A stretch of 61,095 nt of DNA, the filler included. It is 14 parts of 14 records of this genome, joined end to end, with 100 filler letters (N's around TTAATTAATTAA, not from the genome) between each part and the next. Parts side by side here need not be neighbours in the genome. Positions count along the whole stretch, not along the records: positions 13,267 to 17,627 come from SRR7504441_20066; 13 more parts are not named here. One strand, 5' to 3'. The notes below the pieces were generated by a model that worked only from the letters and a program-made list of their open reading frames with translations, searched no databases and had not been told where the DNA came from. A program made the translations under genes and the position numbers. How positions within the stretch are numbered: position 1 is the first letter of the stretch; every line of letters begins with the position of its first letter. This document shows, in pieces, positions 5,371-50,872 of this stretch.

Positions 5371-5470
5371 NNNNNNNNNNNNNNNNNNNNNNNNNNNNNN
5401 NNNNNNNNNNNNNNTTAATTAATTAANNNNNNNNNNNNNNNNNNNNNNNNNNNNNNNNNNNNNNNNNNNN
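5371..5470. other. Artificial contig spacer; the same type occurs at 9142, 13167, 17628, 23799, 27163, 30785, 34510, 38816, 42116, 47102, 52205 and 56765 (each 100 bp)
   Basis: N-run + TTAATTAATTAA (stops in all six frames) + N-run. Confidence 0.99.
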
Positions 5471-9005: not shown

Positions 9006-9646
9006 GCTATAGCCGGCTACGGCTGGTTGTGCACATATCGGACTCGGTGCCCTCGCGTCAATGACGCCGCCATCACAGCCAGCGTCGCGTGGTGCGGAGA
9101 AGCGGGTCGGCGGTGCCGCATAGCGCAGACCCTGGAATGCGNNNNNNNNNNNNNNNNNNNNNNNNNNNNNNNNNNNNNNNNNNNNTTAATTAATTAANNN
9201 NNNNNNNNNNNNNNNNNNNNNNNNNNNNNNNNNNNNNNNNNAGCCCCGAGGCCGGCCGGTTAATGTAGTTCTACTATTCTAGACTGTTGGTTACTGTTGG
9301 TTAAGGATAGCCTAGACATGTTTAAAATTTTCAATTTGCTATTACATGTAATTTTATATCAACTAGTTACGTACATGTACATGTAAAAGTTTGCATCGTC
9401 ACATGATCATATCATCATGTACGTAAATGTTTCGAGTAAGAAATTCAAAATAGACTTATCAACTAGCTAGTACTCTGAAGTACTCTAAACTCCCCTCAAC
9501 AAAATATTAACGAATTACATGTATCAATACTTCGGAACCACTGATGGTGCGTAGATGGAAAGTTTTACTTCAATCAATCAATTCTTTTGGCAAAACTTCT
9601 CTTGCAGTCAGCCCAAACTAATTTGTATCATTTGTAAAAGTGCTTG

Positions 9647-13166: not shown

Positions 13167-13268
13167 NNNNNNNNNNNNNNNNNNNNNNNNNNNNNNNNNN
13201 NNNNNNNNNNTTAATTAATTAANNNNNNNNNNNNNNNNNNNNNNNNNNNNNNNNNNNNNNNNNNNNAT

Positions 13269-15334
13269 TCACGCTAAGCTTACACGCTTTAGATCTGATT
13301 GCCCAAAGCGACCACGCTTAATGACACTAATACATTCTTTCTCAGCGCCAGGGGCTGCTCTCTTCTTTGCGACCTTATCGTCGTGTACTGGCCTCCGATT
13401 CAGCGAGCAAGTGCAACTGAATGGCCGTGGGCACTTTTTGAGCTGCCCGTGGTGAGGTTGGGTGAGCCCGCTGTGCGCATAGAACACCGTCGAGATCCGA
13501 TTGGGCGCCGCCAAGTTTGGGCTGTGCTGCCTCGAATTCGCATGTAGCAGCTCCCGCGCATTCATCAAAACCATGCTGCCGCTCGGAAGCTTGAGTGACA
13601 CACCTGCTCCAAGGCTCACTGCAGTCACGGCCGCTGGATGCAGCCTCACCAGGTGTCTCCGCGCCATCAGCTAGGATATCCAACAGCATGTACCGCGACA
13701 TGTCTGCCTCAGTGCACAGCACGCACATGGCAGCCGCTGCCCCTGCCATGTCACTGGAATCCCTGTGTGGGTGGGTCGCGTGGTCGATATTCACTTCGCA
13801 TGCCGCAAACAGGCTCGCAAAGTGCCCCGGAAAACGGCAGTCAGCCCCTTGAATGCTCGCAGCCCTTAGTACGTCTGCAGCCCCTTTGGCAACAGCACAC
13901 ATCTTCTGCCCAGCCAGCTGCCAGCCAGTCAGACCCTCTCCGCTGGGCACGCGCACCTCGGCTAGCTTAAGCACAGTCTGCACAAGATCAGCCTGCACCT
14001 CTGGCGGCACTGAATCTGGCAGCGGCATGCTCGGGCCTTTGTGCCCAAATCTGGACATGATACAGCCAAACCTAAAGCCGGCGCCAGCAGTGGCCGGATT
14101 GGGGCCCTGGCACACGCTGCAATGAGCCGACTGCTCAGCGGCCTGCTGGCGCCGGCTCAGCACTTGCTGGAGCGTGGGTGGCTCATCTGGCTGGACTGGA
14201 CTGGCAGGAGGGGCGGGCGTCGCAGGCTCTTCCGTATCATTGGTCAGGCCAGCGGTGCACAGATGACACAGGTAGTCGGAGTCGGCCGAGACCCGGGTGC
14301 GGGTGTGCCTCTGATGGCGCCAGGCACACTCTGTATGCGACCAGCGCAGGCAGCGGGAGCACTCGACCATCTCCTGCCCATCGTCCAGGCCCACACCTGA
14401 CAGGCCACAGGCACAGTCGACCACCCAGTCCTTTGAGGGGAGCAGCAGCTTGACTCCACCCGGCAGCGGCATTTCGGGGCTCTGACAGTAGCGGATGAGC
14501 CGTCTGCGGGTGGCGTTGGCCTCGATCAGCTTGGCTAGATCTATCCCGTGCGCCTCGGCCACCTGTGCCATGCTGCTGCTCGCCCCCCGCGGCACCTCGT
14601 GTACCTCCAGCCCGGTCAGGCCCTTTGCATAGGCCAGCACACCTCACAGCCGTCAGCTGCGGTGTCCGGAGGGATCAGCAGCTCCGTCGCCCGCCTGAGA
14701 AGCACGTCCAGACTGCAGCAGCAATCAGGCCAGCCCCGAGCCTTGAGTGCCTGAGCCCAGCCAGTCGCGGCTTGTTCATCGCCAGCACCAGCATCGGGTC
14801 GATCGCCAGCCGTTTGGCCACGCTGCGCACCGTCTCGTCCTCCTCGCACAGGTATGTCGGGCGCTCCGGGCCCAACTCCTCCTCCGACGGCACAGCCGGC
14901 AGCAGCTCAGTGCCCATCAGATATGCCCGTGAGCAGCCCCGGTGGCGGGCCGTCCCATGGCTGCCCAGCTGGGCCAGGCTGCCCATCGCGGCCGCCGCTT
15001 CCTGCCCCGGCAGGGCCTCCCATAGCACCACGCAGACCGCCGCCCACACCCCGCCGGGCAGCTCACAGCAGAGCACAGTGGCCGGGGCATCAGCCCGGGA
15101 GAGCTCAGTGCAAAGCTCGAGCAGCAGGTCCAGGTCGCACTGGCCCAGCTCGCCGGCCCGGTCCTCGATCTTGGCCAGACGCCGGGCCTCGGCCTGCTTT
15201 CGGCCCAGCACCGACACCGGCACGCAGCTCACCGCCAGCCCTCCCAGCCCGGTGCGCACCGCCTCGGCCAGCGCCTCCATGCTGGACGCGCTCGCGAGCC
15301 CCCAGGCAGGCAGCGGGAGCGGTTCGCCTTCCAT
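13269..15334 (-). CDS. TET/JBP-family 2OG-Fe(II) dioxygenase (animal-TET-like) fused to two LysM-like domains and a PHD finger
   Basis: CSVCQGPNPATAGAGFRFGC, HPHRD (HxD, 13759-13767), ELLHANS (His 13542-13544), NRISTVFYAH..LTQPHHG; PHD DCACG..DDGQEMVECSRCLRWSHTEC..YLCHLC; introns 14713-14750, 14605-14642, 13918-13956, 13604-13649. Confidence 0.85.
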
Positions 15335-15402
15335 TGATCCGCCCAGCCTCCCGCCACAAGCCGTTAGATTCGGTTGACCCCGCTCGGCGGCGAGGCAGCA
15401 GT

Positions 15403-16216
15403 TTGAGGACACTGGCGTGGCGGGCGTTCGACCAGCTGACGCGGCGTCGGCCGCTTCTGGTCAAGTGCACGGCAGGTCAGGCCGGGGGCCGGTGTCTGGC
15501 TGGAGGGGCCCGCAGGCGGGATCCTGGCCGGGCTGGGCGACCTGGGCGCCCAGTGGCTCGAGCAGCGCGGCACCGGCCGGTTCGAGCCGGACCCGCGGCG
15601 GCTGGGCGCGCTGGTGCTCTGGCGGGTCAGCTTCCACACCCCGGTGGTGCACGTGTGGTGGGCGCCGCCCCGGTCCCAGCCAACGCCCCGGCCCAGGTTC
15701 AACACGCTGGATCGGTTCGTGACCGGCACCGGCTGGGCATCCGTGGCAAAGAAGATAGCAATGGACCAGCTGCTGCTCTCGCCTGCAGTACACAGCTTCT
15801 TCTTCCCATACATGGCGCTGGCCGAAGGTGCCCGCTCCAACCTCGGGCGCCCGATGGCTGCGCCGCAGGTAGGACGGCCGCCGAGGGTCTGGAGCGGTTT
15901 CAACTCAACTTTGTGTCGCTGATGAGCACGAGCTATTGCTTCTGGCCGGCAGTGCACACTGTCACCTTTACGAGTGTGCCCCTGCATCACAGGTGCCTGG
16001 CTCGATGGTACAAGACTCAGCAACGCGTGCAGGGTGATGTTTGTCAATGTGTGCTCGATGGTGTGGATGGGGATCCTCTCGCACTACAATCAATCAGCTA
16101 CTAAAAAGTCGAAAAGCTTGGACAGTGCAGCCGACCGAGCCAACACTCTGTCTGATGATGACAATGGGTACTCCAATGAGGTTGAACCTAAGTGCGTGAC
16201 GGATGCATCTAGCTAG
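15403..16216 (+). CDS. Mpv17/PMP22-family membrane protein, 4 introns; start codon unclear
   Basis: AWRAFDQLTRRRPLLVKCTAG|GILAGLGDLGAQ, KKIAMDQLLLSP, FWPAVHTVTFTSVPLHHR|VMFVN. Confidence 0.85.
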
Positions 16217-16350
16217 CATGCTCATTAGATCGATGACGCAACAGAATATTCGCACTCGCTGATCGACGTACTGTACGAGGACCGGCTAGAAACCCCACCG
16301 ACAATGTTTAAATCGGCATTCGAAATTTTGTGCACGGTTGCAAATGCCCT

Positions 16351-17298
16351 TTATTGCTCTTCTGTGGTGGATTGCATCTTTTTGAGCTCATCTCTAAAGA
16401 ATTCGATTTGGCTGTTGTTGTCTTCGATCGACTTCATGGCCTTAGAGTGCTCCTCCCGAATCCGAGTGAGCGTATCGTTATTCTCGCGGGCGGCTGTATG
16501 TTTGGCTGCCTCGAGTGTGTCCGCCTGCCCGAGCTCAGCGGCACGCCCACGCCGACCGCGCACCTCATTCTGCAGGACTGCCACTTCCTTCTCTGCTTCC
16601 GCTATCTGTCAGAGCAGAGCTCAGCGACGCGAACTGGCAGGGCGCACGTGGCTGCGCAGGCTCAGGATCTCCTCGTCGCTCTCCCAGGCAGTGTTGGTAA
16701 CATGGTCCACACTGCCCTCGAACACCGTGCGGTAGGCGTCGATTGTCAGTCGATACTGGTCCTGCGCCCGCTGCAGCATTGTCCCCCGCTCGATGCACTC
16801 GTGGGTCACCCGCCGGATTATATCATCTGCCCGCCCGCTCGCCCTCGACCGCGGGGCCTCGCACCGAAACAGTTGGTGAACAGCTCCCGACGCACCGGGC
16901 AGATCCCGTCCAGCCTGGCCTGCTTGTCTGCGAGATCGTGGTCCAGTTTGTTCTGCAGCGCCTTGAGCGCCGGCTCCCACCGGCCGGCACCGTCAGTGTG
17001 AGCGCGTCGATACGGGGCGATTCGTTGGCCAAGTCGAGCGCGCGGCCCAGATTGGCCGGCGGGCGGGACGACGAGCTAAGCTCCCCCCTGCGCCGCAGCT
17101 CAGGCGAACCTGCAGCACCGGCGCACCGGCGGGCTTTGTTGTGGTTGAGGGCCTTGGGGGCCGGCTGTCGCGCAGACTGAGCGGCTGCTGAGCGGGCAGG
17201 CGCACCGTCGGGCGCTCGACCCCGTGCGAGTACAGGGGCGCGTTGGCGGCCTGTCGGGCAGCCGAGATGCGGAGCTCGGCCAGCAGACCGCCGCTCAT
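16351..17298 (-). CDS. Axonemal dynein light intermediate chain (p28/DNALI1)-like, 6 short introns
   Basis: Spliced KLDHDLADKQARLDGICPVRRELFTNCF|DDIIRRVTHECIERG. Confidence 0.8.
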
Positions 17299-17382
17299 CG
17301 CCACTGATATTCTGGGAAGCGACAACGGACTTCAGCCAGAGCATGGAAAGAGCAGCGAGGCGGGCCTTGTGATGCTGCGGTG

Positions 17383-17627
17383 ATGTCGTTGCACTCGCGC
17401 AACCAGCTGCTGCCGCCCTCGCGTGGCCCTCTGACCAAGGAGAACCTCGAAGCCTGGGGCAAGACCTCGTTCCGCGACCTCGAGGATCCCAACTCGACCC
17501 GCTCGACCTTCCGGGTGCCCCGCACTGTTCTCGTGGCCGCACCGGCCCCGGGCACTCAGTGAGTGGGTGCTACTGCAGAGGAGGCGCAAGCATAAGTTTC
17601 GGATCAACGCCAAGGGCTCAATCACCC
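17383..17627 (+). CDS. 5' exon(s) of an unknown gene cut by the contig end
   Basis: MSLHSRNQLLPP... ORF divergent from the DNALI1-like gene, followed by a GTGAGT donor. Confidence 0.4.
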
Positions 17628-25851: not shown

Positions 25852-27045
25852 TCAATCTGACCACAAGTTGGGCCGGTTGGCGTGTGCCTGCATCTGGATC
25901 CGCCTCATCAACCACAACACCCGCTGCATGCACTCCGCACACCCCACTAGCCCATCCACCGCCCCGCCGCACTCCTCGGCCCACCCCAGCCCCCGCAGCC
26001 CATCCCCGACCTCCCCCACCGCCTGCATGGCCTCCTCGCCCCCATCCGGCCCGATCAGCTCAAGTGGCTTGTGGGGCATGATCTTATTCCTCTCCCTGGC
26101 GGGCAAGCACGCCGGCGACGCGAGCCGCTCCGCGTGTGCCTGCTGCCCGGCCATCCGGAGCCCCTTGAGGAAATCGCCCCAGATGAAGTCGGCGTCAAGC
26201 CCGAATGTGAGGTGCACCGACCCGTGTCTCGCAGTCCGGGCGGCATGGACGGTCCCTCGAGGCAAATACAACACGTCTCCAGGCCGCAGCTCGGCATCCC
26301 AGCAGTCTGCCAGCTGCGACTCGTTATACCTGTAGTACAGCGGGTGCCCCGGCCGCTCGGACACCCGGGTGGGCAGGTCCATCCCGGCCCCCACCGGCGC
26401 GCACACCCGCCATTGCTTGCTGCCCTCGGTCTGGACGATCAGCACGTCCTGCGGGTCGTGATGGGCAGAGAGCCCCGGGGTGCCGGCCGGGGCGCTGTAC
26501 ATGTTGACGTTCGGCTCGAACCCTATCTGAGCCCGGACCGACTCGGCGAGCTCGGCCACTGTCGGGTCGGACCGCTGCATCTTGTTCACCACGAGCATCC
26601 CGCCGGCTGCCGACTGCAGCACATCAGCCGTTGAGCGCAGCACGGCGTGCTCGTCCGGGCTGCCGTCGGTGTATCGAACAAACAGCCCAGCGTTCGCCTC
26701 GCTGATCCGGCCAGCCACCCGCCCGAGCAGCCCCGGCGGCACCGCCTCGCCGGCCAGCGCTCCCCGGAACAGCCGAGCTTCGGCCTGGTAGACCGCCCCG
26801 AAGCTCGGGCGGGCCAGCAGCGCGCCGAGCGAGCTGGCCGGCTCGCACCGCTCCTCGCGCGCCCCGGCCACCACCAGAGCGCCGACCAGCCGATCATCCG
26901 CATCGTCACCAGCGTTTGCCGTTAGTCTAACACCTGATCTCCCGCGTTGCGGCCGGTTGAGCCAGCAGCTGCAGAGCGAGAGAGTCAGGCACTCGCTGCA
27001 TGCTGGCGGTTGCCGGGGCAAGCAGCGAGGCGGCCCCAGCCGCAC
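25852..27045 (-). CDS. JmjC/cupin ribosomal-oxygenase-like (YcfD/NO66-type) 2OG oxygenase; start uncertain
   Basis: NVNMY, LSAHHDPQDVLIVQTEGSKQWRV, LRPGDVLYLPRGTVHAA, SVHLTFG. Confidence 0.85.
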   Translation of the reverse strand: MRLGPPRCLPRQPPACSECLTLSLCSCWLNRPQRGRSGVRLTANAGDDADDRLVGALVVAGAREERCEPASSLGALLARPSFGAVYQAEARLFRGALAGEAVPPGLLGRVAGRISEANAGLFVRYTDGSPDEHAVLRSTADVLQSAAGGMLVVNKMQRSDPTVAELAESVRAQIGFEPNVNMYSAPAGTPGLSAHHDPQDVLIVQTEGSKQWRVCAPVGAGMDLPTRVSERPGHPLYYRYNESQLADCWDAELRPGDVLYLPRGTVHAARTARHGSVHLTFGLDADFIWGDFLKGLRMAGQQAHAERLASPACLPARERNKIMPHKPLELIGPDGGEEAMQAVGEVGDGLRGLGWAEECGGAVDGLVGCAECMQRVLWLMRRIQMQAHANRPNLWSD

Positions 27046-27304
27046 GGCACAAAGTATTCGTCGGCGGGCTGGAGCTTGAGCTGGAGACCCTGCCCAGACC
27101 GGCCGGGTCCGGTGAGGCGCTCGTCGAGTTTTATCGGGGCGTTGGGCCGGACGGAGGCGGCCNNNNNNNNNNNNNNNNNNNNNNNNNNNNNNNNNNNNNN
27201 NNNNNNTTAATTAATTAANNNNNNNNNNNNNNNNNNNNNNNNNNNNNNNNNNNNNNNNNNNNCAAGACAAGCTGCCACAGGCCTAGTTAGTAGAGTCTAC
27301 TGGG

Positions 27305-34723: not shown

Positions 34724-36992
34724 TTATGAGGCGGCAGTCGAGTTGGTTGCGAGCCCTTTCTTCTTGAGCATGAATTCGATAACTGGATCCCGACCGCGGA
34801 ACTTTCGGAACAGCTCAGCCGGGTCCTCTGAGTTGCCTGCCGAGTAAATGTGCTTCCTACACGCTTTTGCGGTCTCTGGGTCGAATATATTGCCAGTCTC
34901 TTTGAAGGCCTCGAACGCATCTGCATCCAGCACCTCCGCCCACAGATACACGTAGTACCCAGCAGCGTAGTGTGAGCTCGAGAACAAGTGCTGGAAATGG
35001 GCTGGCCGGTGCCGCATCACAATCCCTTGAGGCATCCCAAGCCTAGCCAGTTCGGTCTCCTCAAAGGTAGCCAGGTCAAACCCGCTAAAGTCCGTTGTCA
35101 GGTGCATACCCATATCAAGCAGCGCGCAGGCCGTGTACTGCCACCGCAGCTAGTCAGCGCTCAGGCAGAATAAGTGTTATCGGCAGCTGCACAAGCTGTA
35201 CCTCGATTGTAGCAAATCCTTGGTTAAACTCTTGGGCCGCTTTGAGCTTCTTGATCAGCTCGTCGGGGACCGGCTCGCCAGTTTGGTGGTGCAGCGCAAA
35301 CTCCTCAAGAACCTCGGGTTGCTCCAGCCAATGCTCCATTAGCTGCGACGGCAGTTCCACAAAGTCGGTTAGCACGTTGGTGCCTGCGAGCCTGGCGTAG
35401 GTGCAATCGGATAACATGCCGTGATGTCCGTGGCCCATCTCGTGGAAGAGCGTGCTGGCGTCGTCGAACGAGAGCAAGGTCGGATCCCCGCGCGCGAAGT
35501 TATTGTTGTTGCTGATGATTGGGATCTTGAGGATCTCAGGTTGATCGGGTGAAAGGTTCTTTGTCTGTCCTCGGTACTCTGCCACACAAGACATCGTCAG
35601 AGTGCCGGAGCTGCAGGCAGGCTGACCTGACATCCAGGCCCCGGAGGACTTGAACGGCCGGGCAAAGTTGTCCGAAATGAAGATTGCCACTGTCTGGCCG
35701 TTCTCCTTGACTTGATACGCCTTAGCATCAGGGTGGTACAGCTGGATGTCTGGCCGAGGCACGTACTCCAGCCCATAAAGCCTGTTGGATACGGCCATCA
35801 CCGCCCGCGTGACGTTCTCGAGGGTGAGATACGGCTGTCACCCGCAGCCAGTCAGCGCTAGAATGAGTGTCATTAGCAGCTTAGGTGGGTGTACCTTGAG
35901 CAGTGACTCGTCAAAGTCGTATCGCGCCTTCCGGACCTTCTCTGCATAGTAGCGCCAGTCCCAGGGCATGATCCCTCCCTCGAGCTCCACCCCCTCGCTC
36001 TTCACATACTCTTCGAGCGCCGCCCTCTCCCGATCAGCAGACACTTTCGCCTTTGCCCACACTTGCTCCAGCAGATCCATCACAGCCTTTGGCTCTTTCG
36101 CCATCATGTCTTCGCACTGGTAGTGCCCAAAGCTTTCCTTCTCGTGCAGTTTTGCCTGCTCGTGCCGCAGCGCCAGTGCCTCCTGAGCCAGCGGGAGGTT
36201 CGCCCTAGCCGACTCTAGCTCGCCGCGCTTTGTCCAGCCGGCCCAGGCCTTCTCACGCAGGTCCCTTCGATCGGCGAACGTCAGGAACGGTTCGACGATC
36301 GACCGACTCAGCGTGATCACATGAATATCCGGCGCCGGCCGCTTCTGGCCGGCCGCCTTCTCTTCGGCCGCAGTGCGCGCTGCAGCGACCAGGCCTTCGG
36401 GGCAGCCGGCCAGGTCGCCAGCCTCCAACGAGAGCGGCATCTGCCATTCCTCTTCGTCCGCCATCACGTTCTGCGAGAAGGCCGTCTGGATCTCGGCCAA
36501 CCTGGCCATGATCCGTGCGTTCTCGGCCTGCTTCTTGGTGTCAAACTTTGCCCCGTGTCTGCAGAAGTCGGTATAAAGCCGCTCGGTGAGCCGGATCTGC
36601 TCCGGCCCGAGCCCGGCCCGGTTGGCGTGGACCCGCTCGATCTTGGGGAACAGCCCGGCCAGCGTGTAGTACCGGCTGGTGTGCCCGGCCAGCAGTGGGG
36701 CCATCTCGGTCTGAACCGCCTGCATCGGCTCGGTGTTGAGGCTGGAGCATAGGTTGGAGAATACCAGCGAGATCTTGGAGAGCTGGCCACCTGCCCGGTC
36801 CAGCGCAGCTATCACATTGTCAAACCCCGGCTCCGCGGTGTCGTCCACGATCGCCTGGAGCTCGTTCAGCTCTTGGGCCATCGCAGCATCGAAGCCGGGC
36901 CGGAAGTGGCTTGGCTCGATCCGCGCGAAGGGAGGCATCCCGAATTCGGGATCGGAGACCGTCCAGTCCTCGAGCAGCGGGTTGGTGCTCAT
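34724..36992 (-). CDS. M3A metallopeptidase (peptidyl-dipeptidase Dcp / oligopeptidase A-like), 3 introns
   Basis: NPLL, PWDWRYYAEKVR, TLFHEMGHGHH (HExxH), DFVELPSQLMEHW, YAAGYYVYLWAEVLDAD; introns 35835-35894, 35579-35626, 35138-35201. Confidence 0.92.
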
Positions 36993-37106
36993 CCTGCAGC
37001 GCTGAGAGAACACTGAAGCCCGGGCGGTGAGCCGAAGCAAAAGCCGAGCAATGACGGATGCCGAGCTGATGAGTCCGAGCAATTCCGTTACTCAGCGGGC
37101 ACGGGG

Positions 37107-38628
37107 ATGAGAAGAGAAACCCCGATGCGGGTGTGCGCGCAGTGCGGCCAGGCCTTCGGCACGCCGCTGGCCGCACGGGCGCACTCGGCCGAGTGCCGCC
37201 CGGACCCGATGGAGCTGGTCCTGCAGGCCGAGGTCGAGCTCCGGCAGGACCGGCCGGCCCGGGCCCTCGAGCAGACCACCGGCGCGCTCCGGATCGCCCC
37301 GCGGCTCGGCCGGGCCTGGCTGCGGCGGAGCCAGGCGCTCCGGCGACTCGGGCGGTGGGCGGACGGGCTGGCGGCTGTGGAGGAGGGTGAGCGGTGCGGC
37401 GAGTCCCAGGCTATCCGGCTGGAGCGGCAGGCGGTGGAAGAGGGCCTGGCGGCGGTGCTCGAGGCTGTGTCGGGGCTGCTCTCCGGGGGAGGATCGTGCC
37501 TGGCTCAGATGGCCGAGATCGATCCGACCAATCTGACAGCCCGGGTGCAGCTAGCAGCGGCCGACCAGCAGCGGGCTGCGAGCCGGGTCGCGCTGGAGGA
37601 TACTAAGCGGGAGCTGCTTGACTGCAGGGAGCTGGACCGGGCGGACCGGGCGGGGCAGGCACTCGGGCCTCTGGAGCGCCGCCAGCTGAATATACCGCTC
37701 GGAACCGGGCCGAGTAGGGCGGCGCTCGGGGCGCTGCTGCACAGGGCACTGGCGGAGTGCCATGCCGGGCTGGGCGAGAAGGAGGCCGGCGCGGAGGCGA
37801 TGGCCGCAGCCTGCCGGCTCAAGCCGGCTGACCGCGACCTGTGGCAGCGCAGCCTGGAGCTGGCAGGGCAGCTGGATGGCCAGCAGGCCGAGCAGGTGCT
37901 CAGAGAGGCTGTTGAGCTGGGCGTCTGGCCAAGCGCGATGCAGCGGCCGACTCAGTTCGTGCCCGGGCTCACGGCCCGCGCTTGGCATGACTGCGCCCAG
38001 CAGCCAGTCGCTCAGGCGCTCGAAGCCGGGTATAGCGCAGTCAAGCAAGAGCTGCTCACGTTGCTCGGACGGTCGGACGCCTTCGGGGTGTACGATTCAG
38101 TCGCTGTGACCAGTGGCGAGTGGAGCGACGTGACTTTTATTCTAAACGGCAAGGTCGACGGCCCAAACTGCGCCCGGTGCCCGTTGACGGCCGGCCTGTT
38201 GCTCCAGCCGGCAGTTCGTGAGGCCGCCACCAGCTGTGTGCTCGGGTCGGCGTACCTCTCCAAGCTGGCGCCCGGCACACACCTGGCTGCGCACTGTGGG
38301 CCTACCAACGCCAGGCTGCGCTGCCACCTAGGGCTGATTGTGCCGGCCGGGTGCTCTATTCGGGTCGGGCGGGAGTGCAGGACGTGGCGCGAGGGTGAGT
38401 GCATTCTGTTTGATGATAGCTTTGAGCATGAGGTGTGGCATCGAGGCGACTCGGACAGGGTGCTTGTAGTTGTATGCTTTGAGTGCTCATTGTGGACAGG
38501 TCGTGCTCATTGTGGACATCTGGCACCCGGGCCTGATCGGGCGCGAGGCCCGGGCGGCGGCAATCCAAGATCCACACTTAAAAGCGCGGTACGAGGCCAT
38601 TTGCCGAAGTGATCGCTTGCTCGGGTGA
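37107..38628 (+). CDS. TPR-containing aspartyl/asparaginyl beta-hydroxylase-like dioxygenase
   Basis: SKLAPGTHLAAHCGPTNARLRCHLGL, WREGECILFDDSFEHEVWH, R|VVLIVDIWHP after intron 38460-38499. Confidence 0.9.
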
Positions 38629-48673: not shown

Positions 48674-50872
48674 ATGCCGCCGCCGTGGAAGCCCAACCCC
48701 AAGCTGGAGGGCAAGCTCGGCCCGAACGGCACTCCGCTCTCGGCCTGCGCCGCCTGCAATGGCAAGCACCGCAAGCACACCTGCGGCCACGGCAAACCCG
48801 CCAAGGGCTCAAAAGCCAACGATCCACCCAACCCGCCGCCCTCCTCCGGAGCCCGGCAGGCTCCAGCCTCCGAGGCCCGGCGGGCGAGTCCCGCTTGCCA
48901 GACCCCTAGCCGACCGTTCGAGCCACCCAAAGATCCGGAGGTGGCCGCTCGGCTCAAGGAACGACTAGAGGTGCGCTCACCGCCGGCTGCCGCCCACCCC
49001 GAGGCCAGCTCGAGCCGTTACCCGACGAGGACGAGCCGCTCGAGCTCGAGCTTGACGAGGACGGTCGGCCGGTGCGCCCCCAGAGAGGCCCGGGGCTGAC
49101 CGAATGGACAGCTGAATCACAACTTTTGTGTTAGCTGCGTTGGGGGTGGTACGGCCGGCCTGCCGGGGGCGACCGCTCACCGGCGGGTCGCAGGCGATCT
49201 GTTGTGCTGCGATGGCTGCACTGCCTCGTTCCACTACGACTGCCTCACCCCTCCGATAGAGGTCTGGCCCCGCTGGGTGCTGAGCTTGAGTGGGTGCGGG
49301 CCAGACGGGCTCGTACCCAGAGGATTTGGACTTCTTCTGCACAGTGTGCACCTTCAAGCAGAAGCCGCCCAAGAAGAGCACCAAGCCGCTCGCCGCAGTC
49401 ACTTGGTGGTCTTCACCAGATTGCCGAGCCGACTCGGTGTGGCCAGGGCGCTTCATGGGCTGCAACCGATGCAATTTGAGCTGCCTTCTGCTATGATCGA
49501 AGAGGTGGCCGGCGGCAGCCAGCGGGGCTCAGTCGGCCGCAGGTCAAGGGGAACAACAAGCTGTGCCGGCCTCACTTCCTCGGCGACCGAGAGGCGGACG
49601 ACAACTCTTTTGACATGTGTGGTGCCGTTTCCAGCTCCGCCAGCCCTCACGCGGTCCCAGGCGCCTGTACCACCAAATTCCCGCCGCGGCTGCAGACGCC
49701 CGGGCACAACCCGGCCTGCTCCGAGTGCAACAGCCGCATGATCCGGTACATCCACATCCCATCCAGCTATGGCTCTGTGAAAGAGAAGACTCCGAATCAG
49801 ATCGCCGCGCTGCAGGCCCAGAGGGCCAGGGCTAAGGAGCAGCGGTGCGCCCCCCGCGGGTGGCCTGCTCAGCTGGCGGCTGCAGCAAGCTGGAGCGGAA
49901 GGAGGAGCGGCGGGCCAAGGCAGCCGGCGGCCGTGCCTCGCCTCTAACGGGGGGCTGCAGCGCGCTAGGACCTCCACAGCCCAGCAGGAGTCCAGTTCGT
50001 CCGAGGAGCTATTCGAGTGCGAGTCAGGCTGCGGGTTTGAGCACGCTGACCGGCAGAGAGTAGAGGCGCACGAGCGGACCTGTGCCAAGATGCCTGCAGT
50101 GAGCTATCACGAGACTGCTGGGCTTGACAGCCGGGGGCAGCGGCAGGGGATGGGGCTGCCCAGGGATAGATCGGGCCGGCGGCGCGACCGGCGGACCGAC
50201 AGGCGGGACTCGCGCAGGCGGCGCGAGGCTGGGAGTGACCTGGAGTTGTTTGAGTGTGAATCGGGATGCGGGTTTGAAAACACTGACAAGAACAAGGTCG
50301 AATTCCACGAAAAGTCGTGCGAAATGATGAAAGCCCAACGGAACGGGGCCGCCCGGCCGCCTAGGTCACGCAAGGCTGACCGGCGGAGGGACCGAGGAGG
50401 TGGGTTGGCGGGGCTGAGCCAGGATTGAGCCGGCACAGGAGGAGGGGAGCGCGCAGTGGTGGTGACCACGTATGAGCCGAGCGCGCCCGATCAGACCAAG
50501 GAGCTGCTGAACAAGCAGCACGCCGATAGCCTGGAGCACTTTGAGAAATTCTACACGCTGGTGCGTTCAAGCATGGCCAGGGCTGAGTGGCCGGGAGGTG
50601 TCCAAGCTGCCTCGCAAAGAGAGAGGCGAGTCGGCTAGAGCTAACGACAACCTCGAGCCGGCAGAGGAGCTGGCCGATCCAGTCCGGGCAGACACGCTGG
50701 TGGAGGAGGTGGCGCGATTGGTTGAGGTGTGCTGAGGTGGTGGCAGTTCTGTTCTTGGCAGAAGCTGATGAGCATCTGGGAGAAGACCCAACAGATTGAG
50801 GAGCAGCTGGGTAGTTGACTGATGCGACGGTCTGTGCGCCGTCGGGCGTGGCAGAGAGATGAGGAACATGCG
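48674..50872 (+). CDS. PHD-finger protein, PHF12/Rco1-like, with two extra Cys/His repeats, multi-exon
   Basis: NHNFCVSC..GDLLCCDGCTASFHYDCLTPP..FFCTVC, QPMQFELP; two copies of FECESGCGFE....VE.HE..C. Confidence 0.7.

Follow-up and report, generated by a model that had tools for sequence, protein, structure and literature searches.

The minus strand at 13269..15334 carries what is probably a genuine nuclear gene, interrupted by introns, from a marine flagellate that has not been cultured; it encodes a compact TET/JBP Fe(II)/2-oxoglutarate dioxygenase. As predicted from its sequence, the enzyme is most likely a chromatin-targeted 5-methylcytosine oxidase. In alignment with human TET2, the core keeps the Tyr and the His that contact the flipped base in that enzyme, as well as the Cys and His positions by which zinc links the Cys-C segment of TET2 to its β-helix. 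The family itself is known, but no other case of a TET core combined with a PHD finger and two LysM-like units emerged from the present searches.

All positions refer to the window, i.e., the whole stretch of 61,095 nucleotides that was analysed. It is not one locus, but 14 contigs of 3.2–6.1 kb each with N...TTAATTAATTAA...N linkers between them, and these contigs may derive from more than one genome.

Gene model and host

The TET-like gene resides on a 4.4 kb contig (13267-17627), with its stop codon 2 nt from the contig end. In three-frame translation, it extends from an ATG at 15334, the first past an upstream in-frame stop, to a stop codon at 13269-13271, and all four coding stretches of the four-exon model are open. 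The peptides quoted in the preliminary description were all recovered on the minus strand, including the LysM-like strings at 14860-14667 and 14604-14437, and two stop-to-stop ORFs (13375-14643 and 13269-13670) share the catalytic domain between them, as had been stated there. The N-terminal region (14891..15334, minus strand) comprises about 148 residues without a recognisable domain and gave no Pfam match at E ≤ 10 except one at chance level.

The frame switches three times within the gene, in a way compatible with tiny introns of 31–47 nt, and three introns are therefore required. Four short introns had been proposed at the outset; three follow from the frame switches, but a fourth, in-frame intron, which may still exist, was not found. 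One candidate, inside exon 3 at a GGCCTGAC motif, was rejected because the PHD finger would thereby lose its final pair of Cys.

Enumeration of in-frame introns gives two options for the first switch (zone A, f1 to f0; 14682..14750, minus strand): a 38 nt GC-AG intron (14750-14713) with a CCTGAT branch-like motif, or a 32 nt GT-AG intron (14713-14682) with a GCGAC motif. The acceptor at 14713 has no GT donor that would keep the frame. Both options preserve the LysM score, whereas GT-AG options from 14788 drop it to 5–6 bits. Intron B (14605..14642, minus strand) is a 38 nt GT-AG intron whose branch-like motif (CCTGAC; GGCCTGAC) resembles those in the introns of a kinase gene (contig 3) and of an M3 peptidase gene. 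Acceptor alternatives exist at 14623 and 14596, and among introns A to C it is the only one with one favoured end pair. Intron C (13604..13649, minus strand; GTGAGG...GCAG) is 46 nt long, or 31 nt if 13619 serves as the acceptor, and without its removal the HxD exon could not continue into the frame with the distal His and Arg. If it were retained, the frame would end at the stop codon at 13375-13377, and both of these residues would be lost.

Parts of the exons are covered by contigs of three RNA libraries, those of X11 and X17 lying over 14902-15344. Run X1, either RNA or DNA (its RNA label is a guess), has a contig that covers 13396-13724 and is colinear with the genome, i.e., unspliced at intron C. 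The sequencing-run contigs contain no exon-exon joints and leave most of the gene without cover.

By Pfam, the neighbours of the gene are ordinary host genes, encoding an Mpv17/PMP22 protein and an axonemal dynein light chain, and no transposase is found on the available flank. A tblastn search of the whole window with P0009, a metagenomic homologue described below, returned no paralogue. Genes in the window are compact, code on both strands and use GT-AG introns, which in genes other than the TET-like one include tiny introns of 34–64 nt. Pfam matches among the window ORFs include the chromatin genes TAF6, SWIRM-associated, PHD and JmjC. An intron-bearing microbial eukaryote is supported as the host, in keeping with the protist origin first suggested. 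PDB searches with the WD40 and dynein light-chain ORFs gave nothing informative on its identity. Near-identical pieces occur in marine, seawater and one air metagenome, with a share of sampled words of no more than 0.13. Scans with Rfam and for tRNA genes found nothing in the window. In the 215 ORFs scanned with Pfam from the 61-kb window, no DNA methyltransferase was seen, and a 5-methylcytosine substrate in the host is therefore putative.

The catalytic core and its partner domains

Three collinear blocks of the predicted protein align with human TET2 (chain residues 131-168, 231-276 and 388-440), and no other TET/JBP structure in the PDB was matched. In a PDB-wide phmmer search, two ORF pieces matched TET2 in collinear order with E values of 5.5e-4 and 3.4e-5, and a profile made from P0009 and two window pieces (A1) found TET2 at E 1.1e-12, with nothing else related at E ≤ 10. 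The Pfam Tet_JBP profile (PF12851) matches the first half of the predicted double-stranded β-helix over profile positions 68-107 (17–18.1 bits) and the second over positions 119-163 (19.4 bits); each exon piece was scored alone, and both fall under the gathering score of 34.9 bits.

The TET2 Cys-C-like segment (14047..14163, minus strand; SRR...CxxCQG...GAGFRFGC) is aligned with TET2 residues 131-168, including the Arg-Arg pair and three Cys. Its Cys-rich motif, CSVCQG...FRFGC (14163-14047), is followed downstream by GADCRF and then HPHRD. Both of these belong to the first half of the β-helix (13705..13842, minus strand; TET2 231-276), which holds the GADCRF Cys, the His-x-His-x-Asp motif (HPHRD at 13773-13759, HxD codons 13767-13759) and an Asp at the position of TET2 Asn1387. 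The second half (13443..13603, minus strand; TET2 388-440) reads GVSLKLPSG...LHANS...RISTVFYAHSGLTQPHHG at 13603-13443 and includes the distal iron His (LHANS, codon 13544-13542), the 2-oxoglutarate Arg (NRIS, codon 13499-13497), the Ser, Tyr and His of RISxVFYxH and the His of PHHG. Beyond it lies a conserved C-terminal tail, CPxPFSCxCS (13404..13433, minus strand), common to the gene and P0009.

The HxD...H iron triad and the 2-oxoglutarate-binding Arg are present and all aligned to TET2 residues. In TET2 numbering, the identities fall at R1261/R1262, C1273, C1289, C1358, H1380, H1382 and D1384 in the first part and at H1881, R1896, S1898, Y1902, H1904 and H1912 in the second, with Asp in place of N1387. 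The roles and numbers given for these residues are those of the TET2 structure, the offset of +1125 from the chain index being self-consistent across the alignments. The positions that we take to be Cys-C zinc ligands (CxCQG...FGC, the Cys before HxD, His-x-His and the PxHG His) are present by the same alignment. The HxD Asp and the distal His lie about 55 residues apart, and the long insert of vertebrate TETs is absent. AlphaFold models have a mean pLDDT of 39.5 for the 323-residue exon and 31.0 for P0009 with a three-row alignment, values too low for use, so that the β-helix fold is putative.

The preliminary description had called the protein an animal-type TET, with an intact triad and 2-oxoglutarate Arg, collinear with the TET core and free of the long insert. 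Its assignment to the Fe(II)/2-oxoglutarate dioxygenases of TET/JBP type agrees with the alignments, as do the collinearity and the missing insert. "Animal-type" appears to hold at the level of motifs only: the Cys-C zinc and Arg positions and the C-terminal motif are kept, but the Cys-N half, the CXXC domain and the long insert are absent, no metazoan TET was found at E 1e-3 among 1.84 billion proteins, and the language-model neighbours of P0009 are from Basidiomycota. In place of the Cys-N half, the PHD finger is followed by a Pro-rich stretch of only about 30 residues before the Cys-C motif, and the TET2 alignment starts at chain residue 131. Neither a CXXC domain nor an RNA-binding domain was detected by Pfam.

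The PHD finger (14257..14415, minus strand), which had been noted from the start, precedes the catalytic core. Its ligands, as read from the translation, have the canonical C4HC3 spacing (CxC-x15-CxxC-x4-H-xx-C-x19-CxxC), with a Trp two residues before the His. It scores 23.5 bits against Pfam PHD (PF00628; E 5.7e-5; gathering score 24) and matches PHD fingers in the PDB from E 3.1e-4. In the search of 1.84 billion proteins, 133 of the 134 hits match best at the finger or in its surroundings; a PHD domain was present in 14 of the 15 hits scanned.

Two LysM-like units are found further upstream: unit 1 (14667..14860, minus strand), which is split by intron A, and unit 2 (14437..14604, minus strand). 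Against a profile of seven E. coli LysM sequences, hmmsearch gives 11.4–11.9 bits for unit 1, whose ORF is the best of 837 window ORFs, and 6.2–6.5 bits for unit 2. Profile-profile comparison by hhalign with the seven E. coli domains (columns 2-33 of 46) gives 89% for unit 1, 70.5% for unit 2 and 94.5% for both together, against a maximum of 24.9% for 120 random window segments and of 4.2 for shuffles (40 per unit). MltD (E 2.2) and a LysM receptor kinase (E 0.72) match the region in register. The proposal of two LysM-like domains is thus upheld by profile-profile comparison but not by Pfam LysM (PF01476; gathering score 20.9 bits), which matches neither unit at E ≤ 10; the sole nearby Pfam match is LysM3_LYK4_5 on unit 1 (E 0.2). 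Which option holds for intron A determines the C-terminal strand of unit 1. None of 136 proteins (P0001-P0136: the 134 hits, nearly all PHD, and two cluster members) exceeds 3.2 bits with the LysM profile.

Taken together, these parts suggest an enzyme that would flip a 5-methylpyrimidine out of DNA and hydroxylate its methyl group. The base would most likely be 5-methylcytosine, converted to 5hmC and perhaps to further oxidised forms, and the PHD finger may recruit the enzyme to chromatin, or retain it there, via the histone H3 tail.

Relatives and alternative readings

Among 1.84 billion representatives, a single relative was found, so that the evidence from conservation is thin. This is P0009, a 173-residue fragment from a 1142-nt ENA metagenome contig that forms a singleton cluster. 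It shares 40–49% identity with the TET-like gene over the β-helix (54% in the second half) and scores 43.9 bits against the Tet_JBP cut-off of 34.9. By tblastn, it matches both frames with a combined E of 3e-29, residues 1-89 falling on 13986-13684; it is collinear across the position of intron C and has no intron there. The structural neighbours of its Atlas model (pTM 0.71) are Tet_JBP clusters, and its language-model neighbours are Basidiomycota Tet_JBP clusters with a score of 0.95. Word-seeded protein searches with the large ORF and P0009 returned nothing, which is weak evidence given their filter. JGI metagenome contigs gave no relatives, either by a two-sequence alignment scan or by a degenerate DNA pattern for the VFYxHSGLTxPHH motif, and the window exon yielded no usable match in the ESM Atlas.

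The same fold and chemistry could instead serve a thymine hydroxylase that makes 5-hydroxymethyluracil in DNA, like JBP1/2 and CryTJ1/AmpTJ1. We regard this as unlikely, although protist TET/JBP enzymes often act on thymine, as outlined in PMC11572971, and Naegleria Tet may prefer thymine in vivo according to PMC12344493. Also in favour, an ABC1 kinase encoded on another contig has named relatives in Symbiodiniaceae only (46–47% identity), and no DNA methyltransferase was seen among the window ORFs scanned. On the other hand, the base-contact residues agree with those of TET2, a 5-methylcytosine enzyme, and the change from Asn to Asp would, judging from known structures, favour the C4 amino group over a carbonyl. 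The chromatin genes, compact two-strand gene arrangement and GT-AG introns of the window are unlike core dinoflagellates, and the dinoflagellate TET/JBP homologues are termed highly divergent in PMC11572971. A substrate in RNA, such as 5-methylcytosine, or some other substrate than DNA is highly improbable; action on RNA has been proposed for some TET/JBP clades (PMC4738411), but the PHD finger and the TET2-like pair of DNA-contacting Arg suggest chromatin, and the protein has no RNA-binding domain.

Very unlikely, in our estimate, is a decaying pseudogene or assembly artefact in which the frame switches are frameshifts rather than introns, and no active enzyme is made. This reading gains from the absence of exon-exon joints in the contigs, with the X1 contig colinear with the genome over 13396-13724, from the junction whose acceptor at 14713 has no in-frame GT donor and from the fragmented assembly (3-6 kb contigs). 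Nevertheless, every catalytic and zinc position is intact, the four coding stretches are open, and each switch has intron-like ends and a branch-like xTGAC/T motif, with sizes as in other genes; moreover, P0009 is conserved on either side of switch C. At intron C, a chance indel from assembly is improbable, because the sequence recurs in the X1 contig, which is independent. There is also very little to recommend a mobile-element gene, which would belong to transposon biology rather than host chromatin regulation, even though fungal TET/JBP genes are often transposon-borne (as outlined in PMC12730594), as in Basidiomycota, the source of the language-model neighbours of P0009, and the contig breaks off directly beside the gene, so that only one flank is available. 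The available flank holds the Mpv17/PMP22 and dynein light-chain genes without a transposase, the window has no paralogue, and the protein has host-type chromatin modules. A host gene for a chromatin-targeted 5-methylcytosine oxidase is thus the preferred reading.

Comparison with known systems

TET proteins with the Cys-rich, zinc-tied core are regarded as an animal invention, and their protist, fungal and algal relatives as more distant TET/JBP proteins. A protist enzyme with the Cys-C and active-site positions of TET2 would be a new data point on the origin of animal DNA demethylation. It would also offer enzymology a minimal, insert-free TET2-like core, represent a different solution to targeting, with a PHD finger and LysM-like units in place of CXXC, and suggest oxidised methylpyrimidines in an abundant but uncultured marine lineage. 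It is rather doubtful, though conceivable from the sequence, that the protein comes from a so far unsampled branch of the true TET subfamily beyond animals, as the first outside Metazoa with the zinc-tied Cys-C scaffold, and that its LysM-like pair might read a glycosylated oxidised base. If so, the animal TET core would either predate animals or have moved between animals and marine protists, and reading by the LysM-like units (a sugar-binding type) would create a hypermodified-base system that propagates itself, comparable to that of JBP1 and base J.

The closest solved structure is that of human TET2 (PDB 4nm6, 5d9y, 5deu), with which the TET-like protein has in common the iron triad, the 2-oxoglutarate Arg/Ser, the base-stacking Tyr, the RISxVFYxH His, the Arg-Arg pair and the Cys-C Cys/His. 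In contrast to TET2, it lacks the Cys-N half and the long low-complexity insert, has CxxC instead of CxC in the zinc motif and Asp instead of Asn1387, and carries two LysM-like units and a PHD finger as its N-terminal modules. Naegleria Tet1 and the Basidiomycota TET/JBP proteins (e.g., Coprinopsis CcTet) are likewise compact β-helix enzymes without the vertebrate insert; they are not known to have the Cys-C zinc segment. Neither the sequence searches nor the profile gave a match at E ≤ 10 to NgTet1, which is presumably present in the PDB copy used.

Other fusions of TET/JBP with chromatin domains are also among the closest known systems. A fusion of TET/JBP with LysM was not found in a literature search of titles and abstract openings. 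Among the kinetoplastid enzymes, JBP1 contains a J-binding domain, and JBP2 has a SWI2/SNF2 domain as its fusion partner. The kinetoplastid JBP1/2 and the dinoflagellate CryTJ1/AmpTJ1 are protist TET/JBP enzymes with the HxD...H...R motifs, as in the TET-like protein, and modify DNA after replication (as outlined in PMC11572971). They differ from the proposed 5-methylcytosine oxidase in that they hydroxylate thymine.

A TET/JBP catalytic domain divided over two reading frames

Three-frame translation of the minus strand places the first in-frame ATG of the TET-like gene at 15334 and its stop codon at 13269-13271, 2 nt from the edge of a contig of 4361 bases (13267-17627, 64% G+C). All of the peptides quoted in the preliminary description are present, and the catalytic domain is indeed divided over two ORFs: 13375-14643, which holds a 323-residue exon with the HxD motif, and 13269-13670, which holds the last exon with the distal His and Arg.

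When the exon pieces were scored separately and unspliced against the Pfam Tet_JBP profile (cut-off 34.9 bits), the HxD exon matched positions 68-107 of the profile with 17-18.1 bits and the last exon matched positions 119-163 with 19.4 bits; each piece is below the cut-off, and the two profile segments are consecutive. Besides PHD fingers and two chance-level rows, human TET2 was the only solved structure matched by the HxD exon (overall E 5.5e-4; the two matched pieces cover chain residues 131-168 and 231-276), and the last exon matched TET2 chain residues 388-440 with an E-value of 3.4e-5.

An exhaustive HMMER search of the 323-residue exon against 1.84 billion representatives (E<=1e-3) gave 134 matches, of which 133 were strongest in or around the PHD finger; 14 of the 15 scanned with Pfam had PHD and no Tet_JBP. 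Only one of these representatives was a catalytic-domain relative: P0009, a singleton of 173 residues encoded on an ENA metagenome contig 1142 nt long. P0009 scores 43.9 bits against Tet_JBP, above the cut-off, shares 40% and 49% identity with the halves of the catalytic domain, and has a C-terminal CPxPFSCxCS tail in common with the TET-like protein. In tblastn, it aligns in frames -1 and -2 flanking intron C, one of the frame-switch zones of the gene (combined E 3e-29). A profile of P0009 and the two window pieces matched TET2 with an E-value of 1.1e-12 and nothing else related among the solved structures at E<=10. The structural neighbours of the Atlas model of P0009 (pTM 0.71) are Tet_JBP clusters, and two AlphaFold runs gave mean pLDDT values of 39.5 and 31.0, too low for the models to confirm the fold. 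On these sequence comparisons, membership of the TET-like protein in the TET/JBP family can be regarded as established.

Short introns, transcription and genomic setting

Four introns had been proposed, but three were found, in the form of three frame changes, each bridgeable by a very short intron. The best defined is intron B (14642-14605, 38 nt, minus strand), a GT-AG intron in which a GGCCTGAC branch-like motif lies 10 nt upstream of the AG. Intron C runs on the minus strand from 13649 (GTGAGG) to either 13604 (46 nt) or 13619 (31 nt); either acceptor keeps the frame and leaves the catalytic residues untouched. Intron A, also on the minus strand, is either 14750-14713 (38 nt), with a CCTGAT branch-like motif at acceptor 14713 and in-frame donors that are GC only, or 14713-14682 (32 nt), which is GT-AG.

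Very short introns are normal for this assembly and seem typical of the organism. A protein-kinase gene on contig 3 (11150-11360, minus) has two GT-AG introns, 34 and 36 nt long, within conserved kinase motifs, with a GCTGAC/GCCGAC branch-like motif near each AG, and the introns of an M3 peptidase gene are 60 and 64 nt (35835-35894 and 35138-35201, minus strand). The two M3 peptidase introns are ~70% alike, with a common 3' half (...ATTCT...GCGCTGACTxGCTGCGG...CAG), a likeness that brings introner-like repeated introns to mind; the window contains the motif GCGCTGACT just three times.

Contigs from RNA libraries cover 14201-14351 (sequencing run X18), 14902-15085 (X17) and 15043-15344 (X11, oligo-dT) at 95-100% identity. 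These are a weak sign of expression, since DNA can contaminate RNA libraries. No splice joints were seen in the contigs matching the gene; the sole contig crossing an intron (13396-13724) is colinear with the genome and comes from X1, a run called RNA by guess. The unspliced frame ends at a stop at 13375-13377 and is without the distal His and Arg, so function would require splicing. An X1 contig matching 13267-13414 extends ~53 bases past the contig end at 13267, which indicates that public data contain the 3' flank that the gene lacks here.

The window of 61,095 bases consists of 14 contigs of 3.2-6.1 kb and 56-68% G+C, joined by thirteen N...TTAATTAATTAA...N linkers (5371-5470, 9142-9241, 13167-13266 and ten others). 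It represents several loci rather than one, and because the contigs are concatenated, genes on opposite sides of a spacer are unlinked. The contigs may come from more than one organism. Near-identical pieces occur in marine and seawater metagenomes and metatranscriptomes in small shares (<=0.13 of sampled words).

A Mpv17/PMP22 gene on the plus strand lies head-to-head with the TET-like gene, less than ~100 bp away (15335-15440, in which no ATG for it was found), and the same contig carries an axonemal dynein light-chain gene and no transposase. These close neighbours point to a compact-genome flagellate as the host. An intron-free ABC1 kinase ORF on another contig (24075-25799, plus) has as its only named relatives Symbiodiniaceae plastid-type ("chloroplastic aarF") kinases, at 46-47% identity, which hints that the host may be plastid-bearing or alveolate-related, a lead rather than an identification. 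By Pfam, the remaining contigs carry eukaryotic nuclear genes of an ordinary kind, including TAF6, a SWIRM-associated domain, JmjC, a second PHD finger (ORF at 49100-49738), WD40, Fra10Ac1, an M3 peptidase, a GH2 hydrolase and the ABC1 kinase. Two encode further 2-oxoglutarate oxygenases: an aspartyl/asparaginyl beta-hydroxylase with TPR repeats (37017-38612, plus strand) and the JmjC protein (25852-27210, minus strand). No DNA methyltransferase was found among the 215 window ORFs run through Pfam.

LysM-like units and a PHD finger

The two segments upstream of the catalytic core that had been described as LysM-like, unit 1 (14667-14860) and unit 2 (14437-14604), have no match to Pfam LysM at E<=10, and the sole LysM-type Pfam match is that of unit 1 to LysM3_LYK4_5 (E 0.2). 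A two-row profile of the units gave in-register but non-significant matches to the LysM domain of MltD (E 2.2) and to a LysM receptor kinase (E 0.72). A further profile was built from seven Pfam-verified E. coli K-12 LysM domains (MltD x2, NlpD, Kbp, MepM, LdtC, LdtE). In hmmsearch with this profile, the score was 11.4-11.9 bits for unit 1, with an E-value of 1e-5 for one sequence, and 6.2-6.5 bits for unit 2 (E 4e-4). In hhalign, over columns 2-33 of 46, the values were 89% for unit 1, 70.5% for unit 2 and 94.5% for the two aligned together. All of 120 random window segments of 52 residues stayed below 70%, with a maximum of 24.9, and 40 shuffles per unit gave maxima of 1.0 and 4.2. The units had been preselected for their LysM look, so some agreement is expected; a partial guard is the ranking of all 837 window ORFs of at least 40 residues, in which the ORF of unit 1 came first and that of unit 2 third. 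The likeness spans the first strand, both helices and the conserved Asn; the choice of intron A ends determines the last strand of unit 1. Among P0001-P0136, 136 library proteins that are nearly all PHD matches, none has a LysM-like unit (best 3.2 bits).

The PHD finger (14415-14257, minus) is a canonical C4HC3 (CxC-x15-CxxC-x4-H-xx-C-x19-CxxC) with a Trp two residues ahead of the His, and scores 23.5 bits against Pfam PHD (E 5.7e-5; cut-off 24). Its nearest solved relatives include an Arabidopsis PHD protein, Bye1 and DIDO1. Bye1 and DIDO1 are H3K4me3 readers. Since the finger resembles these two and has the Trp, a putative role in reading the H3 tail is a reasonable inference.

Likeness to TET2 and predicted activity

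In the alignments to TET2, adding 1125 to the chain index gives the TET2 residue numbers Cys1271/1273, Cys1289, His1382 and Asp1384. The TET-like protein keeps Arg1261-Arg1262, the Cys pair (as CxxC, versus CxC in TET2), Cys1289, Cys1358, His1380, His1382, Asp1384, His1881, Arg1896, Ser1898, Tyr1902, His1904 and His1912, whereas Asn1387 is replaced by Asp. In TET2, these residues serve in iron, 2OG, base and zinc contacts. The Cys-C segment, which lies upstream of the region that forms the Pfam domain in TET2, is to our knowledge specific to the animal TET subfamily.

The designation "animal-type" holds at the level of these motif positions. The Cys-N half of animal TETs is absent, with ~30 Pro-rich residues between the PHD finger and Cys-C, there is no CXXC domain, and the beta-helix is compact (~55 residues from the Asp to the distal His). 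No metazoan TET was matched by the 323-residue exon at E 1e-3 in the HMMER search of the 1.84 billion representatives, and by language-model comparison P0009 has Basidiomycota Tet_JBP clusters as its neighbours (score 0.95). Together, these features count against full membership in the animal TET subfamily, and "animal-type" is best read as a motif-level rather than a phylogenetic statement.

The Fe(II) and 2OG residues are intact, as are the base-contact residues by analogy with TET2. The enzyme would flip a 5-methylpyrimidine out and hydroxylate its methyl group. 5-Methylcytosine is favoured as the predicted substrate because the base-pocket Tyr and His match those of TET2 and because the Asp at the position of Asn1387 would accept an amino-group hydrogen bond. 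The main rival is hydroxylation of thymine, the substrate of JBP enzymes and of dinoflagellate CryTJ1/AmpTJ1 (PMC11572971).

The core carries the PHD finger and the two LysM-like units fused upstream. No paper joining TET/JBP to LysM was found in the literature searched, where one search phrase may miss the usual spelling, and the architecture may already be listed in two surveys by the Aravind group, from 2009 and 2011, which are outside the literature covered. Fusion of TET/JBP to chromatin domains is a known theme (PMC4738411), and the TET-like protein is rated as a variant within the known TET/JBP family, with an architecture that is new as far as found.
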